This document shows positions 3,518-44,014 of a stretch of DNA of 64,000 nucleotides, one piece after another. Every line of letters starts with the position of its first letter. Position 1 is the first letter of the stretch. This DNA comes from an uncultured Alphaproteobacteria bacterium (lineage in GTDB: Bacteria > Pseudomonadota > Alphaproteobacteria > HIMB59 > GCA-002718135): positions 137,519 through 201,518 of the forward strand of contig CACIQI010000002.1 of NCBI GenBank assembly GCA_902588745.1. The letters run 5' to 3'. The position numbers and the translations under genes were made by a program. The notes below the pieces were generated by a model. The model worked only from the letters and a program-made list of their open reading frames with translations, ran no database searches and was not told the origin of the DNA.

Positions 3518-4392
3518 TATATTTTAATTTTTTCCAGCAATTTATGTACATCTTCAATATAGCTTCTATCCCATAAATAAACATTTAATAGTGAATAATA
3601 TAATTGATAAATTGGTTCGTATTCTAGGTAATATTTATCAATCTTGATATGATCATTGTATTTATCTAAAAAATTATCATCAATAAATACTGGGTTAAAC
3701 CATCTCAAATACGATATTTCTAATTCATTATGACCATAAAAAGATCCTGGATCGATAAATCCTACAAACTTTTTATTTTTAAAAAGTATATTTCCTTCCC
3801 ATAAGTCACCATGTAATAAAGATGATATTGGTTTGTTCGGAATAAAATTATCCATCTTTTTAATTAATAAATCAATTTTAGTGTTAATAGTTTCATCCAT
3901 AGGTTGATTTTTGTTAACTAAGTCAAATATATAAGTCAGTCTTTTATCTCTATAAAACTCTAACCAATTTTTAGAACTAGAATTAATCTGCTTCAAACCA
4001 CCAATTTGCGTATCAAAACTAAAACCGTAATTTTTACTTTTATTTGAGTGAAGAGAAATTATACTATTTAATAAATCATCATTAGTTTGGTTTGGCTGAT
4101 CGTCATCATTATTTATGAATGACATTATTAATAAATTATCATTATAGTTTATAATACTTGGAAATTGATTAAATTTTTGTCTATTAAAAAAAAGAAGATT
4201 ATCTGTCTCAGATTTTATAGCATTAAATTCATCATTATTTCTATAATAATATTTGACAATAAACTCTTTACTATCACTTGTGACAATTTTTAAGCAATTA
4301 ATCCCAAAAGAGTCTGATAATAACTTGCTATGTATAATTTTTTTATTATCTAAAAGTTTTTCAATTTCTAAAATGACACTTTGCTCAATCAT
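3517..4392 (-). CDS. Fructosamine/ketosamine-3-kinase family protein (FN3K/YniA-like)
   Basis: 291 aa. It carries SLLHGDLWEGN, IDPGSFYGHNELE and YQLYYSLLN, matching the HGDLWSGN / DP..Y.G..E.D / YQLY.LLN pattern of the family. Its stop overlaps the asnB start (TAATG). Confidence 0.8.
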   Translation of the reverse strand: MIEQSVILEIEKLLDNKKIIHSKLLSDSFGINCLKIVTSDSKEFIVKYYYRNNDEFNAIKSETDNLLFFNRQKFNQFPSIINYNDNLLIMSFINNDDDQPNQTNDDLLNSIISLHSNKSKNYGFSFDTQIGGLKQINSSSKNWLEFYRDKRLTYIFDLVNKNQPMDETINTKIDLLIKKMDNFIPNKPISSLLHGDLWEGNILFKNKKFVGFIDPGSFYGHNELEISYLRWFNPVFIDDNFLDKYNDHIKIDKYYLEYEPIYQLYYSLLNVYLWDRSYIEDVHKLLEKIKI

Positions 4393-17579: not shown

Positions 17580-18185
17580 TTATAAGTTAATTTCTTCTGT
17601 AACATAAATTCCTGGATTTTGATGTGAGCTAAATATTATAGAGCCTTCCTTAGCCACATGATCTTCAAAAGTTTGTTTGATTAATTCAATTGAATATTCA
17701 TCTAAATTTGAAAGAGGTTCATCTAAGAACCAAACCTTTTTATTTTCTATTATTAATCTTAAAAATTCTAATTTTTTAATTTCACCAAAAGATAATGTTC
17801 CAACCTTTTGATTTAAATGATCTTCTAATTTTAAGGTTTTTAAAGCAGTTTCAATTTGAGAATTATTTATATTTGATAAAAAAATTTTACTCCAAATACT
17901 AATATTATCTTTAACAGTTAATTTTGTTAAACTAGAAGTTTTATCAGCAATATATGTAATATGACTATAAAAATCATATAAATTTTTTTTTAATAATTTC
18001 CCTTTCCAATATATTGATCCAACAGATGGTTCAATTATATTTAATATTGTTTTCAGTAAGGTAGTTTTGCCAGAACCATTTTTACCTTTTAATATAGTAA
18101 TATTCCCGGAGGTTAGAGATAAGTTAATATTTTCAAATATTTTTTTATTTAGTCTCTCTACAGATAAATCTTTAACAATTATCAT
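17580..18185 (-). CDS. ccmA: Heme exporter ATP-binding protein CcmA
   Basis: 201 aa with Walker A GKNGSGKTTLLK, signature LSFGEIKK and Walker B WFLDEP. Confidence 0.9.
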   Translation of the reverse strand: MIIVKDLSVERLNKKIFENINLSLTSGNITILKGKNGSGKTTLLKTILNIIEPSVGSIYWKGKLLKKNLYDFYSHITYIADKTSSLTKLTVKDNISIWSKIFLSNINNSQIETALKTLKLEDHLNQKVGTLSFGEIKKLEFLRLIIENKKVWFLDEPLSNLDEYSIELIKQTFEDHVAKEGSIIFSSHQNPGIYVTEEINL

Positions 18186-18218
18186 TATTAAGATCTAATT
18201 ACTTTTTGATTTAAAACA

Positions 18219-18253
18219 ATAAAAAAACGGGGTAAAACCCCGTTTTATTTTTT
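18219..18253 (-). terminator. Rho-independent terminator (bidirectional-looking hairpin), second of two after the Lys-rich gene
   Basis: The hairpin ACGGGGT-AAA-ACCCCGT (18227-18243) is flanked by A7 on one side and TTTTATTTTTT on the other, so a U-tract follows the hairpin on either strand. Confidence 0.8.
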
Positions 18254-18294
18254 GGAAAAAGATAAGAAAAAGAAAACTTTAAATTAAAGTTTTC
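18252..18294 (-). terminator. Rho-independent terminator immediately after the Lys-rich gene stop
   Basis: A perfect 10-bp palindromic stem GAAAACTTTA / TAAAGTTTTC (18272-18294) has a 3-nt loop. On the minus strand it is followed by TTTTTCTTATCTTTTTCC. Confidence 0.6.
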
Positions 18295-18313
18295 TTGAAA
18301 AATTGAAGTTTTT

Positions 18314-18490
18314 CTATCTTCTTTTTTTCTTCTTTTTAGCAGCTTTTTTCTTCTTCTTTTTAGGAGCTGCTTTTTTCTTTTTCTTAGGAGCAGCTTTTTT
18401 CTTTTTCTTTTTAGGAGCTGCTTTTTTCTTTTTCTTAGGAGCTGCTTTTTTCTTTTTCTTTGGAGCAGCTTTCTTTTTCTTCTTAGCCAT
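18314..18490 (-). CDS. Extremely basic lysine/alanine/proline tandem-repeat protein (58 aa; histone H1-like / polycationic)
   Basis: The sequence is MAKKKKKAAPKKKKKAAPKKKKKAAPKKKKKKAAPKKKKKAAPKKKKKKAAKKKKKRR. The ATG at 18490 is preceded by AAGGAG with a 6-nt spacer, and two terminators follow the gene. The track's longer 75-aa version starts at a TTG without an SD. Confidence 0.7.
   Translation of the reverse strand: MAKKKKKAAPKKKKKAAPKKKKKAAPKKKKKKAAPKKKKKAAPKKKKKKAAKKKKKRR
18330..18488. repeat. Intragenic tandem repeat, 24/27-bp unit in about 6 copies, forming a ~160-bp polypurine/polypyrimidine tract
   Basis: On the plus strand the unit TTAGGAGC(T/A)GCTTTTTTCTTTTTC(TTT) is repeated head-to-tail and encodes KKKKK(K)AAP on the minus strand. 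Confidence 0.85.
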
Positions 18491-18786
18491 AAAATACTCC
18501 TTGTATTTTGTTACCCCGGAGGAACCTCCCTCCTTTATCAACTTAATGATAATTAAAAAGGCTGACTATTTATTCCCAAAACTTACGGTTAAAGTCAACA
18601 ATATAGCAATATTTTAAAATTAATCTAATTATAGAATATTATTGTAACTTTTTAAAAAAAATTAATTTAAAAAAATTAATTTATTTTTATATTTTTTGGC
18701 AGAAAACTAATAATAAATAAACATTTTGCTATACAAAAATTTATCTTCATACTATTTAGTTATTATAATTTTTAAGCGATTTTATC

Positions 18787-21429
18787 ATGAAAAATATAAA
18801 TTCTTTTAATTCAGAGGACATAATTGAAATAAATGATCAAAAATATAAATATTTCGATTTAAATAAAGCAGTTGAACATTTTGATATTGATCTTAATAAA
18901 ATACCAATTTCTATTAAGATAATAATTGAAAATCTTCTAAGAAATGAAGACGAAGAGAATATTAATAAAGATATGATTTCTAAAGTTCTTTCCTCTTTAA
19001 ATCAAATTAACTCAAAAGAAGAAAAAATCGAAATAGCTTTCTTTCCTACACGTGTTCTAATGCAAGACTTTACTGGCGTACCTGCAGTTGCTGATCTTGC
19101 TGCAATGCGAAATGCGTTAAAATCTCGAGGAATTGAGCCAAAAAAAATAAACCCACTATCTAGGGTAGATCTAGTTATTGATCATTCTGTGATGGTAGAT
19201 AATTATAAAGATAATAATGCTTTGAAAGAAAATGTTAGAAAAGAATTCGATAGAAACAAAGAAAGATATGAATTTCTAAAATGGGGACAAAGTTCATTCG
19301 ATAACTTCTACCTTGTGCCCCCAGGAGCAGGCATCTGCCATCAAGTTAATCTAGAAAATATTGCTAAAACTATATGGTTGAAGAAAATCGATAATAAAAA
19401 CTATTTATTTCCAGACTCAGTAGTAGGAACTGATAGTCATACGACAATGGTTAACTCACTTTCTGTTTTAGGATGGGGTGTTGGAGGAATAGAAGCTGAG
19501 GCAGCTATGCTTGGTCAAGCTATTTCTATGAATATACCAGACGTAATTGGTTTTGAACTTAAAGGATCATTAAAGGAGGGAATTACCGCAACTGATTTAG
19601 TTTTATCTATAACTAAAATCCTTAGAGATAAAGGTGTTGTAGGAAAGTTTGTAGAATTTTTTGGTAGTGGTTTAAAAAATTTATCATTAGCTGATAGAGC
19701 AACAATTTCTAATATGGCACCAGAGTATGGAGCTACCTGTGGATTTTTTCCAACAGATCAAGAAACTATAAATTACTTAAAGTTAACTGGTAAAGAAATT
19801 GAACATCTAAATATTGTTAAAGAATATTCAAAAAAACAGACCCTTTGGGCAGATGAAAATTACTCACCTGATTATTCTGATAAAATATTATTGGACTTAG
19901 ATAAAGTAGAACCTACTCTAGCCGGCCCAAAAAGGCCTCAAGATAAAATTCTATTAAAAGAAGTTCCTAATGAATTTAACAAGATAGATAATAATCAAAG
20001 TAACAATAAAAATAAATTAAACGCTGGTGATATAGTTATAGCTGCAATTACTAGTTGTACAAATACATCTAATCCAAATGTTATGATTGCAGCAGGATTA
20101 GTTGCTAAAAAGGCAATTGAATTAGGTTTAGAGGTTAAGCCATGGGTTAAGACAAGTTTAGCTCCTGGCAGTAAAGTTGTAAGTGACTATCTGGATAAAG
20201 CTGGATTAACAAAATATCTTGATATTATTGGTTTTAAAACTGTTGGCTATGGATGCACAACTTGTATTGGTAATTCTGGGCCTTTAGATGAATGGGTTTC
20301 TCAGGAAGTAAGAAAAAATAATCTAACTGTTTGTTCTGTTTTATCTGGAAATAGAAATTTTGAAGGAAGAGTTCACCAAGAAGTTAAAGCGAATTTCCTT
20401 GCTTCCCCACCACTTGTTGTTGCATATGCTATTGCAGGAAATATTAATATTAACCTTACAACTGAATCTATTGGTAAATCTAAATTTGGTAAAGAAATAT
20501 TTTTAAAAGACCTATGGCCTTCAAATACTGAAATCAATCAAACACTTAGTAAATGCTTAACGCCATCAATGTTTAAAGAAAGATATAAAGAAATTTATAA
20601 AGGTGATGATAACTGGAAATCAATAAATAATAATAATAACACTACATATGATTGGAATGATAGTAGCACGTATATAAAACATCCTCCTTTTTTTGATACA
20701 GAAAACAAATTTGAATTAAAAGATATAAAAAATGCAAGAATACTGGCTTTGCTAGGTGATAGTGTAACAACAGATCATATTTCTCCAGCTGGAAGTATTA
20801 AAGAGGATAGTCCAGCAGGTGCTTATTTAACAGACAGACAAATTAATTCTAAAAATTTTAATTCCTATGGATCAAGACGTGGTAATCATGAAATTATGAT
20901 GAGAGGCACCTTTGCAAATATAAGAATCAAGAATATGATCTTAGATAATGTAGAAGGTGGTTACACAAAGTCATTTATATCAAATAAACAAATGTCAATA
21001 TATGATGCAGCTCAAGAATACATAAAGAGTAATATTGATACAGTTATAATTGCTGGCAAAGAATATGGCACCGGTTCATCAAGAGATTGGGCTGCTAAAG
21101 GAACAAGGCTTTTGGGTGTTAAAGCAGTTATTGCTGAAAGTTTTGAGAGAATTCACAGATCAAATTTAATTGGTATGGGAGTTTTGCCTCTTGAATTTGA
21201 AAATAAGCAAAATAAAACAAATCTTAATATCTTAGGAAATGAAACTATTTCTATTTTGGGTATGTCTGAATTAAAGCCAGGCGCGAAACTTAATTGCAAG
21301 ATTAATAGAGAAATAAATAATAGTATAGAGTTGAGGTGTAGAATAGATACAAATAAAGAGCTTGAATATTATAAAGCAGGAGGAATTTTAAATTACGTTT
21401 TAAATGAAATAATATCAGACGCTGCATAA
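18787..21429 (+). CDS. acnA: Aconitate hydratase A
   Basis: 880 aa with MQDFTGVPAVADLAAMR, VGTDSHTTM, ITSCTNTSNP, GCTTCIGNSG and SGNRNFEGR. Confidence 0.97.
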   Translation: MKNINSFNSEDIIEINDQKYKYFDLNKAVEHFDIDLNKIPISIKIIIENLLRNEDEENINKDMISKVLSSLNQINSKEEKIEIAFFPTRVLMQDFTGVPAVADLAAMRNALKSRGIEPKKINPLSRVDLVIDHSVMVDNYKDNNALKENVRKEFDRNKERYEFLKWGQSSFDNFYLVPPGAGICHQVNLENIAKTIWLKKIDNKNYLFPDSVVGTDSHTTMVNSLSVLGWGVGGIEAEAAMLGQAISMNIPDVIGFELKGSLKEGITATDLVLSITKILRDKGVVGKFVEFFGSGLKNLSLADRATISNMAPEYGATCGFFPTDQETINYLKLTGKEIEHLNIVKEYSKKQTLWADENYSPDYSDKILLDLDKVEPTLAGPKRPQDKILLKEVPNEFNKIDNNQSNNKNKLNAGDIVIAAITSCTNTSNPNVMIAAGLVAKKAIELGLEVKPWVKTSLAPGSKVVSDYLDKAGLTKYLDIIGFKTVGYGCTTCIGNSGPLDEWVSQEVRKNNLTVCSVLSGNRNFEGRVHQEVKANFLASPPLVVAYAIAGNININLTTESIGKSKFGKEIFLKDLWPSNTEINQTLSKCLTPSMFKERYKEIYKGDDNWKSINNNNNTTYDWNDSSTYIKHPPFFDTENKFELKDIKNARILALLGDSVTTDHISPAGSIKEDSPAGAYLTDRQINSKNFNSYGSRRGNHEIMMRGTFANIRIKNMILDNVEGGYTKSFISNKQMSIYDAAQEYIKSNIDTVIIAGKEYGTGSSRDWAAKGTRLLGVKAVIAESFERIHRSNLIGMGVLPLEFENKQNKTNLNILGNETISILGMSELKPGAKLNCKINREINNSIELRCRIDTNKELEYYKAGGILNYVLNEIISDAA

Positions 21430-41730: not shown

Positions 41731-42186
41731 ATGCCAGTAAGAATAAGATTATCAAGAGGTGGTGCAAAGAAAAGACCATTTTATAGAATAGTAGTTGCCG
41801 ATTCTAGAAGAGCTAGAGATGGAAAATTTATAGATCAAATTGGAACTTATAACCCAATGCTTCCAAAGGATAGCGCTGATAGAGTTAAAATGGATTTAGA
41901 CAAAGCTAAGGAATGGATTGCGAAAGGAGCAAAACCATCAGATAGAATTTCTATTTTTCTCAGCAATCTTGGTGTGATGGAAAAACCAGTTATTACTGAA
42001 AAAACAAAAAAACATTTACCTAAGAAAAAAGCACAGGAACGTTTAGCTGCTGCTAAAGAAAAAGAAGAAGCTGCGAAAGCTGCAGCAGAAGAACCAAAAG
42101 CAGAAGAAGCAGAAGCTAAGCCAGCTGAAGATGCACAACCTGCTGAAGAACCAAAAGCAGAAGAAGCAGAAGCTAAAAAAGAATAA
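41731..42186 (+). CDS. rpsP: 30S ribosomal protein S16 with acidic low-complexity C-terminal extension
   Basis: 151 aa. The core is [32 protein letters not shown] tail from about residue 90 contains [12 protein letters not shown] twice. Confidence 0.93.
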
Positions 42187-43408: not shown

Positions 43409-44014
43409 ATGAGTAATTTATTAGAGGTATTTGAAAAACAACAGATTGAAAAGTTAACTTCAAAAAAAAGAGTTCCTGCTTTTCGTCCAGGTGATACTCT
43501 AAAAGTTACTGTAAGAATTACAGAGGGAAGTAAGTCGAGACTTCAAGCGTTTGAGGGTATTTGTATTGCAAGAAAAAATAATTCAGTAAACTCTAACTTT
43601 ACTGTGAGAAAAATATCTCATGGAGAGGGTGTTGAAAGAGTATTCCCTTTATTCAGTCCATTAGTAGAAAAAATTGAAGTTGTTAGAAAAGGCGATGTAA
43701 GAAGAGCTAAGCTATATTATCTAAGAGAATTATCTGGAAAGAAAGCAAGGATCGCAGATAAAGATAGGGGCGATGAAGCTGATCAATATGAATATATAGA
43801 GGAAGCTTCTCCGGTAGAAGAAACAAAAACTGCAGATACAGATACAAATGCTGCAGAGGAACCAAAAGCTGAAGAGGTAGAAGCAAAAGAAGCAGAGACA
43901 AAAGCAGAAGAAGCAGAAGCCAAACCAGCAGAAGAATCTAAAGCAGAAGCTGCAGAGGAATCTAGTAAAGAAGAGGAAAAAGCAGCCGAAAATAAATCGG
44001 ATGACAATAAATAA
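43409..44014 (+). CDS. rplS: 50S ribosomal protein L19 with acidic low-complexity C-terminal extension
   Basis: 201 aa. The core is FRPGDTLKV...EG.K.R.Q.FEG.CIARKN...[15 protein letters not shown]. About 80 aa of E/A/K/P-rich tail follows. Confidence 0.93.

Follow-up and report, generated by a model that had tools for sequence, protein, structure and literature searches.

A lysine-rich tandem-repeat mini-protein conserved in SAR11 as a candidate H1-like, nucleic-acid-condensing polycation

The linker histone H1 of kinetoplastids consists of the tail only and lacks a globular domain. Chlamydial Hc2 (HctB), BpH1 and the Hc2-like proteins of Burkholderia and Ralstonia likewise consist almost wholly of short Lys/Arg-Ala(-Pro/Thr) tandem repeats and have no globular domain. 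Hc2 ranges from 165 to 237 amino acids (aa) through varying lysine-rich repeats, with in-frame variation among strains, and both Hc2 and BpH1 vary in repeat number, bind RNA as well as DNA, and bring about condensation of the nucleoid (PMC2848022). Peptides consisting of KPAA repeats and AlgP's C-terminal domain bind DNA in vitro, the repeat number being a mutational hot spot, and AlgP is enriched at polyphosphate (polyP) granules (PMC9239181). Here, we analyze an open reading frame (ORF) for a much smaller lysine-rich repeat protein, which is located at positions 18314..18490 on the minus strand of a 64,000-nucleotide stretch of contig CACIQI010000002.1 (the window, with a GC content of 29%), between the divergently transcribed aconitase gene acnA and the ccmABC genes; for brevity, we refer to it as the polyK gene.

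The ORF starts with ATG and encodes a 58-aa product, MAKKKKKAAPKKKKKAAPKKKKKAAPKKKKKKAAPKKKKKAAPKKKKKKAAKKKKKRR, with the layout MAKKKKKAAP(K5-6AAP)4K6AAK5RR. The product contains 37 Lys, 13 Ala, 5 Pro, 2 Arg and 1 Met (K 64%, A 22%, P 9%, R 3%), with no acidic residues, so that about 67% of the residues are Lys or Arg; the formal charge is +39, the molecular mass 6.6 kDa and the pI 12. The calculated mass is 6613.5 Da with the initial Met and 6482.4 Da without it. Re-translation exactly reproduced the sequence, composition and charge given in a preliminary description of the window, and the tandem repeat reported there was recovered by Tandem Repeats Finder at positions 18322-18486 (period 24 with 6.3 copies, and also 51 with 3.0 copies and 75 with 2.2 copies).

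To compare this gene across relatives, 70 loci were retrieved via AcnA, 53 of which include DNA upstream of acnA, and 106 further loci came from a metagenome scan for the N-terminal pattern MAKKKKKAAPK. The AcnA of the window shares 85-91% identity with the AcnA proteins of many single-cell genomes from GORG and of Pelagibacteraceae, and therefore, the host is assigned to SAR11 (Pelagibacterales), in line with the streamlined genome assumed previously. The ORF is in frame in all 53 loci that include the region upstream of acnA (47-82 aa), among them a lineage with only about 70% AcnA identity. Among the complete SAR11 copies, 120 of 121 have an intact frame, in 29 different lengths (36-92 aa) and with 76 distinct proteins encoded by 107 distinct coding sequences; the sole broken copy (L089) carries a frameshift near the 3' end. 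Three further database fragments push the lower bound of the length to about 31 aa, and the predicted copy-number polymorphism is thus borne out, with lengths of 31-92 aa among relatives.

Only seven residue types are found across the family. The 4,305 codons at basic positions comprise 1992 AAG, 1880 AAA, 427 AGA, 5 AGG and 1 CGA, with zero codons for Glu, Asn, Gln or Ile, and no replacement by an acidic or neutral residue. Because only Lys and Arg codons occupy these positions, the positive charge is the selected trait, with charge-keeping single-base changes tolerated and charge-losing ones not. Among the 25 distinct 58-codon alleles, 22 of the 24 polymorphic codons vary purely silently (the exceptions are P18T and R57K), and the pairwise differences add up to 1223 synonymous vs 160 non-synonymous. 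By these comparisons, the ORF is a real SAR11 gene that is translated, belongs to the core and is present in single copy, and the preliminary description was right to treat it as coding for a protein. The alternative of an accidental ORF within a purine-rich repeat that acts as DNA or RNA without coding (structural DNA, a small RNA or a slippage-prone spacer) would be in keeping with the low complexity of the tandem repeat DNA, with its being passed over by gene callers and with the frequent breaks of assemblies within it (27 of the 148 contigs, L076, L085, L086 and L097 among them, end inside the repeat, which is hard to assemble). However, the persistence of the frame through 29 lengths, the overwhelmingly silent polymorphism, the restriction of substitutions at basic positions to Lys-Arg exchanges and the invariance of the ATG and of the Shine-Dalgarno (SD) sequence leave this explanation with next to no probability, and we consider it effectively refuted by the comparative data.

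At the DNA level, the purine content of the coding strand is 78% and the longest unbroken purine run is 21 nucleotides (nt), so that the polypurine/polypyrimidine tract of about 160 bp invoked in the preliminary description is not homopurine; because the purine tract is interrupted, the accompanying idea of triplex formation (H-DNA) is weakened as well. The choice of Lys codons is unusual: AAG accounts for 16 of the 37 Lys codons (43%) vs 13.6% in the long ORFs of the window (binomial P = 1e-5). The longest A-run spans 7 nt, at 18322-18328 (AAA AAA followed by the A of AGA), and in all 54 homologues, the maximum A-run is between 5 and 8 nt vs the 15-18 nt expected from genomic codon usage. When the Lys codons of the gene itself were shuffled, an A-run of 7 nt or less was obtained in only 5e-5 of the trials. 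Thus, the earlier claim that AAG codons are placed such that they break A-runs holds, although the longest run is 7 rather than 6 nt. These observations support the avoidance of slippery poly(A) by AAG placement; the pressure may come from ribosome sliding, RNA polymerase slippage or replication slippage, which are inseparable here.

The similarity of this protein to the described polycations is uneven. It shares with Hc2 the tandem lysine-rich repeats and the in-frame variation in length (29 lengths among 121 copies) but is 3-4 times shorter (31-92 aa) and has no distinct C-terminal domain; its repeat unit consists of 7-9 aa with 4-6 basic residues, whereas that of Hc2 is a pentamer with 2, and its host is a free-living oligotroph without a developmental cycle. 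Like the tail of linker histone H1, it is a polycation, presumably disordered, dominated by Lys, Ala and Pro, with a presumed role in neutralising the charge of DNA and condensing it; however, the SAR11 protein is all repeat with no winged-helix domain, contains 64% Lys vs roughly 40% in H1 tails, and lacks S/TPKK phosphorylation motifs, and there are no nucleosomes for it to bind. The Lys/Ala/Pro tandem repeats, again presumably disordered, are also reminiscent of AlgP and PhaF, but AlgP is a 352-aa protein with a 124-aa helical N-terminal tethering domain and one Lys per 4 residues, in contrast to a repeat-only protein with the unit K5AAP, rather than KPAA, and a far denser charge. Overall, the SAR11 protein is two to three times as densely charged as Hc2, with its 2 basic residues in each pentamer, or AlgP, with 1 in each KPAA. 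In size (30-60 aa), basicity (about two-thirds of the residues), lack of a fold and presumed condensing action, it resembles protamines and Coxiella ScvA, which, however, are Arg-based and belong to sperm or dormant stages, whereas the SAR11 protein is the Lys-based product of a core gene in a growing planktonic bacterium. Finally, small ribosomal proteins such as bTHX, bS22, bL36 and eL41 are similarly tiny, extremely basic and often missed by annotation, but they have a fixed length and a specific sequence, unlike this variable-length repeat.

With hmmscan, no Pfam-A family was detected, either at E <= 1 in the window protein or at E <= 10 in three of its homologues, which are 63, 75 and 92 aa long, a null result that is weak evidence given that the composition correction of HMMER penalises such sequences; the families not matched include HC2 (PF07382), Hc1 and the linker histones (PF00538). 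The label 'histone H1-like' attached to the protein previously therefore describes its composition only, and the search against H1/Hc2-like profiles that was suggested alongside it returned no Pfam match. NCBIfam likewise yielded no family at E <= 10, ribosomal proteins included, and a sequence search of the PDB yielded no match. By every sequence-based test of membership that could be applied, the protein falls outside the H1, Hc2, AlgP and ribosomal-protein families. Its charge density, given the runs of 5-6 Lys in every unit, is closer to that of a protamine than to that of any described bacterial H1-like protein, and it is presumably an undescribed member of the 'bacterial lysine-rich H1-like polycations', a kind defined by composition and function. 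What sets it apart is that it is extremely short and extremely densely charged, has a conserved leader RNA of its own and is encoded by a core gene of SAR11.

The spacer between ccmA and acnA (601 nt, 23.8% GC) consists mostly of unconserved AT-rich DNA with sharply conserved islands, which we compared among 100 distinct leaders from two SAR11 lineages. The farthest upstream of the islands that accompany the polyK gene is a promoter-like block of 38 nt, TATATTGTTGACTTTnnnCGTAAGTTTTGGGAATAAAT (18568..18605, minus strand), with at least 97% column conservation in these leaders against an unconserved flanking intergenic region; it is unique within the window and contains a -35-like hexamer, TTGACT, followed after 17 nt by a poor -10 element (GAATAA) that is preceded by TGG. 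This block was not called in a scan for consensus promoters because its -10 element is non-canonical. At a rearranged locus (L046), the polyK gene follows a helicase-like gene, and the 38-nt block, leader, gene, both terminators and ccmABC remain together, the block starting about 60 nt after the stop codon of the preceding gene. Since it moves with the polyK gene and not with acnA, the block belongs to the polyK gene and is most simply its promoter, from which we infer the transcription start. A predicted promoter of the form TTTAAA-17-TATAAT at 18656-18628 was rejected as the conserved one because this stretch is unconserved in relatives.

Downstream of the putative promoter, the box AGCCTTTT (18555..18563, minus strand), at or near the predicted 5' end of the leader, is conserved in nearly all of the 100 leaders and is followed on the same strand by two hairpins. 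Hairpin 1 (18535..18552), with an ATCAY...RTGAT stem and a variable loop, is supported by covariation: it occurs in 73 distinct sequences, all of which fold into a hairpin of 6-10 bp, with the compensatory pairs ATCAC/GTGAT, ATCGC/GCGAT and GTCAC/GTGAC, and an extended CACTTA/TAAGTG stem in the distant clade. Hairpin 2 (18518..18533) has the form GGAGG-N6-CCUCC, that is, an SD-like arm and an anti-SD-like arm; its stem is near-invariant, being identical in 98 leaders and GGGGG in the other two, where the pair is kept as G.U, whereas the loop varies (GAGGTT, GGGGTT, TAGGTT, GATGTT). The motif occurs once in the window and is present in both the minimum free energy (MFE) and the centroid folds. 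The free covariation of hairpin 1, set against the fixed GGAGG/CCUCC stem, suggests a sequence-specific role for hairpin 2, for which translation control of the SD/anti-SD type or a ribosome standby site can be offered as speculation. The GUUGACU/AGUCAGC pairing that also appears in the MFE fold was discarded since it is not kept in other clades. Within the region 18150-18800, Rfam contained no leader family at the gathering threshold or at E <= 10, the only hits being chance matches on the terminators.

The SD sequence itself, AAGGAG (18497..18502, minus strand), lies 6 nt upstream of the ATG, within ACAAGGAG, which is invariant in 100 of 100 leaders. Its predicted pairing with the anti-SD (-8.0 kcal/mol) ranks second among the 63 ORFs of the window; accordingly, the sequence and spacing described previously are confirmed but not the rank, which had been given as the best. 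As to alternative starts, the 75-aa version that the list of ORFs begins at an upstream TTG was dismissed, the extension being non-coding leader RNA as judged by comparison of relatives. An in-frame ATG or TTG 15-17 codons upstream (MEGGSSGVTKYKEYF-) is observed in most clade-1 genomes at positions homologous to 18518-18541 (minus strand); the few entries in the database take it as their start, the distant clade has TAAATG, with a stop abutting the main ATG, and the stretch shows no coding-like evolution. The start of this kind that gives MEGGSS... was rejected as the true N-terminus because its ATG is absent from the window, it overlaps both leader hairpins, a TAA precedes the main ATG in the distant clade, and the changes in the stretch are mostly non-synonymous.

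Downstream of the stop codon, two terminators follow on the minus strand. Terminator 1 (18256..18294, -9.7 kcal/mol) is an AT-rich hairpin, GAAAACTTTA-ATT-TAAAGTTTTC, followed by the U-run TTTTTCTTATCTTTTT; in the distant clade, the hairpin has a different stem (GAAAAAAAT...ATTTTTTTC) followed by the same T-rich tail. Terminator 2 (18221..18246), found in the terminator scan with -14.5 kcal/mol, is GC-rich and consists of AAAACGGGG-loop-CCCCGTTTT and a T7 tail; it is present in every clade, with a varying loop, and ends 38 nt before the start codon of ccmA (17580..18185, minus strand; ABC_tran), behind which come ccmB, ccmC and further ccm genes. The ORF, both terminators and ccmA thus succeed one another within 130 nt. 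The two terminators noted in the preliminary description are both real features downstream of the stop that recur in distant relatives, and its reference to strong dedicated expression signals is borne out by the strong SD, the conserved promoter-like block, the leader and the terminators. The complete expression unit (promoter-like block, two hairpins, SD and terminators) is, by sequence comparison, conserved between lineages with about 70% identical AcnA. The order polyK-terminator 1-terminator 2-ccmABC is kept in every clade (L001-L062), even where acnA has moved (L046). No promoter-like (sigma-70-like) site was found between the polyK stop and the ccmA ATG, and no SD between terminator 2 and ccmA (18186-18255). 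The absence of a promoter-like site upstream of ccmA suggests that transcription of the ccm operon may depend on read-through of the terminators from the polyK promoter.

We hold, with moderate confidence, that a nucleoid-directed charge neutraliser and compactor is the most likely role of the protein. In this scheme, a domain-less, intrinsically disordered polycation would be produced from its own conserved promoter, through an mRNA with a structured leader of about 70 nt, a strong SD and two tandem terminators, immediately upstream of ccmABC. It would bind cellular polyanions in bulk through sequence-independent electrostatic contacts, with the chromosome as the most probable main target, and would thereby neutralise phosphate charge and compact the nucleoid, as the C-terminal tail of H1, chlamydial Hc2 or protamines do, with the repeat number setting the valency of each molecule. 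What we infer here is that the protein is highly expressed and disordered, that it binds nucleic acids and that its main target is DNA: the core status of the gene together with its strong expression signals implies an abundant product; the behaviour of the compositionally similar proteins Hc2, BpH1 and AlgP points to nucleic-acid binding and condensation; and the free variation of the repeat number (31-92 aa) fits a multivalent, valency-type electrostatic binder that acts non-stoichiometrically. Several points weigh against this assignment. The proposed promoter has a poor -10 element; the analogy with H1 and Hc2 is compositional only, no homology to H1, Hc1, Hc2 or any curated family having been detected; a peptide so densely charged would attach just as well to RNA, ribosomes, polyphosphate or the acidic tails of proteins, so that the present evidence does not discriminate DNA from other polyanions; a nucleoid role leaves the conserved linkage to ccmABC unexplained; and the literature searched holds no paper linking SAR11 to a lysine-rich protein. 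A bolder version can be put forward only tentatively. Under this version, a protamine-like polylysine peptide would be a major counter-ion and condenser for the SAR11 chromosome and/or ribosomes, its repeat number (31-92 aa) would tune compaction, the SD/anti-SD leader would tie its synthesis to the state of the cell, its promoter would feed ccm by read-through, and a wider, likewise unannotated class of stand-alone polycationic mini-proteins may exist in other Alphaproteobacteria, the 19-aa ORF of L132 (see below) being one example.

Other polyanionic targets have to be weighed against the chromosome. Some lineages have ribosomal proteins of their own that are very small and very basic (bTHX, bS22, eL41), and the polyK product might be a ribosome- or RNA-associated polycation of this type, namely, a small basic ribosomal or hibernation protein or an RNA chaperone, possibly paired with the acidic tails of ribosomal proteins. 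This possibility, which we deem rather unlikely, draws on the SD/anti-SD-like leader hairpin, which might suit ribosome-linked feedback, and on what would be natural electrostatic partners in the window, bS16 and bL19, both with long acidic A/E/K C-terminal tails; it is also in keeping with the higher RNA affinity of Hc2 compared to Hc1 and the repression of translation by Hc2 (PMC2848022). However, the threefold variation in length (31-92 aa) in natural populations argues against a fixed ribosomal slot or any defined pocket, NCBIfam contains no matching ribosomal protein, and the neighbours are ccmA and acnA, with no adjacent ribosomal genes. The genes in question are those for bS16 (41731-42186, plus strand) and bL19 (43409-44014, plus strand), whose low-complexity Ala/Glu/Lys tails are encoded by tandem repeats at 42084-42173 and 43853-43964, respectively; these tails could be electrostatic partners of a +39 polycation. 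A binder or tether of polyP or other polyanion granules, which, similarly to AlgP, would organise polyP in a phosphorus-stressed oligotroph, is a much less probable alternative. AlgP (+55) is the outstanding protein of polyP granules in P. aeruginosa, where its KPAA domain is required for granule spacing (PMC9239181), and avid polyP binding by a +39 peptide is to be expected on simple electrostatic grounds; yet the SAR11 protein has no second domain for tethering, ppk and ppx are not next to the gene in the window, and the gene has the look of a constitutive core gene, not of one specific to starvation.

The peptide could also be a by-product, with the ORF acting mainly in cis as a translated leader, the decoding of which, with 37 Lys codons and a polybasic nascent chain, would control terminator read-through into ccmABC. 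The arrangement of the ORF, two terminators and ccmA, which is conserved in all clades even after rearrangement on the acnA side, and the lack of a sigma-70-like promoter between the stop codon and the ccmA ATG are what one would expect under this explanation; nevertheless, we regard it as very improbable. Whereas the regulatory codons of an amino-acid-sensing leader peptide are fixed for one amino acid, here AGA replaces Lys in 427 of the 4,305 basic codons, and Arg (AGA) occupies up to 12 of about 55 basic codons in the distant clade, so that charge, and not Lys decoding, is what selection maintains; the Lys-to-Arg swaps thus argue against a Lys-sensing leader peptide. Moreover, the length of the ORF varies threefold, the stop lies about 20 nt before terminator 1, no conserved alternative (antiterminator) pairing is seen, and the supply of lysine bears no logical relation to heme export, whereas the strong SD and the avoidance of A-runs favour efficient and faithful synthesis of a product. 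Read-through into ccm is, in any case, compatible with a functional protein.

On the other side of the spacer, acnA (18787..21429, plus strand) is divergent from the polyK gene. Upstream of acnA, at 18685-18760 (plus strand), blocks with at least 97% conservation in both SAR11 lineages were observed (TTCTGCnAAAAAA and AAATTTTTGTATAG in the minus-strand reading), and the spacer around them is unconserved; these blocks are probably the acnA promoter or 5' untranslated region and possibly a regulatory element. Among the 70 single-cell-genome contigs, 12 start inside acnA codons 15-92 (L027, L028, L032, L034, L036, L038, L039, L041, L043, L046 and others). The assembly breaks around the AT-rich spacer and the repeat probably reflect coverage dropout along with heterogeneity of repeat alleles.

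The protein is essentially unannotated. Exact look-ups in a collection of 15 billion proteins, which covered eight sequence versions, found none of these, neither the window protein nor four homologue variants nor the 75-aa TTG form, and an antisense 104-aa Phe-rich ORF had no exact match there either. Two family searches together yielded no more than four singletons without a name, all from metagenome assemblies in ENA: one is frameshifted (P0001), and three have the start called inside the leader. When the 58-aa protein served as the query of a word-indexed search, K-rich words saturated the search and P0001 was the sole match, and an N-terminally extended query returned only the three leader-start singletons. 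A phmmer search against 1.84 billion representatives produced only three unrelated eukaryote-like low-complexity proteins, the N-terminal pattern was not matched in viral contigs, and a literature search found no paper describing the protein. The list of intergenic regions of HTCC1062 published by Meyer et al. 2009 includes a region of 596 nt with 22.8% GC at 999830-1000425 (PMC2704228, supplementary table 1), which, by size and GC content only, is a candidate for the same locus as the 601-nt spacer between ccmA and acnA; if so, the gene is unannotated in the type strain, too. An example of a small basic ribosomal protein gene missed by annotation is rpmH, which the first annotation of HTCC1062 lacked (PMC2704228, supplementary table 2).

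Two ORFs outside SAR11 came to light alongside these loci. On contig JADMIO010784951.1 (L132, GC 56%), a stand-alone 19-aa ORF, MAKKKKKAAPKKAAKKKKR (3735-3794, minus strand), is equipped with a promoter-like site (TTGACG), an SD (GGAGG) and a GC-rich terminator, and is convergent with rpoD, the product of which carries a K/A/P-rich N-terminal extension. Judging from this adjoining KAP-rich RpoD, the contig probably comes from another alphaproteobacterium, and the ORF may be a miniature relative of the SAR11 gene. At L107 (1137-1326, plus strand; GC 43%), the SD AAAGGAGGGG precedes an ORF, MAKKKKKAAPKRRKAAVKKPIKRKVAKK..., that exceeds 63 aa and is cut off by the contig end; this ORF encodes a less repetitive K/R/A/P-rich protein of an unrelated organism. 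Neither ORF is a proven homologue of the SAR11 gene; together, they hint that polycationic mini-proteins form a larger class, so far hidden from view.

Standard methods are systematically blind to such proteins: the ORF is passed over by gene callers and given little weight in profile searches, assemblies from short reads are interrupted in it, and the protein would be destroyed in proteomics based on trypsin. Hence, catalogues may greatly underestimate how common proteins of this kind are. SAR11, the ocean's most abundant heterotroph, has cells that rank with the smallest and most numerous on Earth and that possess few regulators and few nucleoid proteins. In their cytoplasm, a +39 peptide that is encoded by a core gene and apparently highly expressed would be a major component so far unaccounted for, one that could help explain how the chromosome is packed and charge is balanced in so small a volume.

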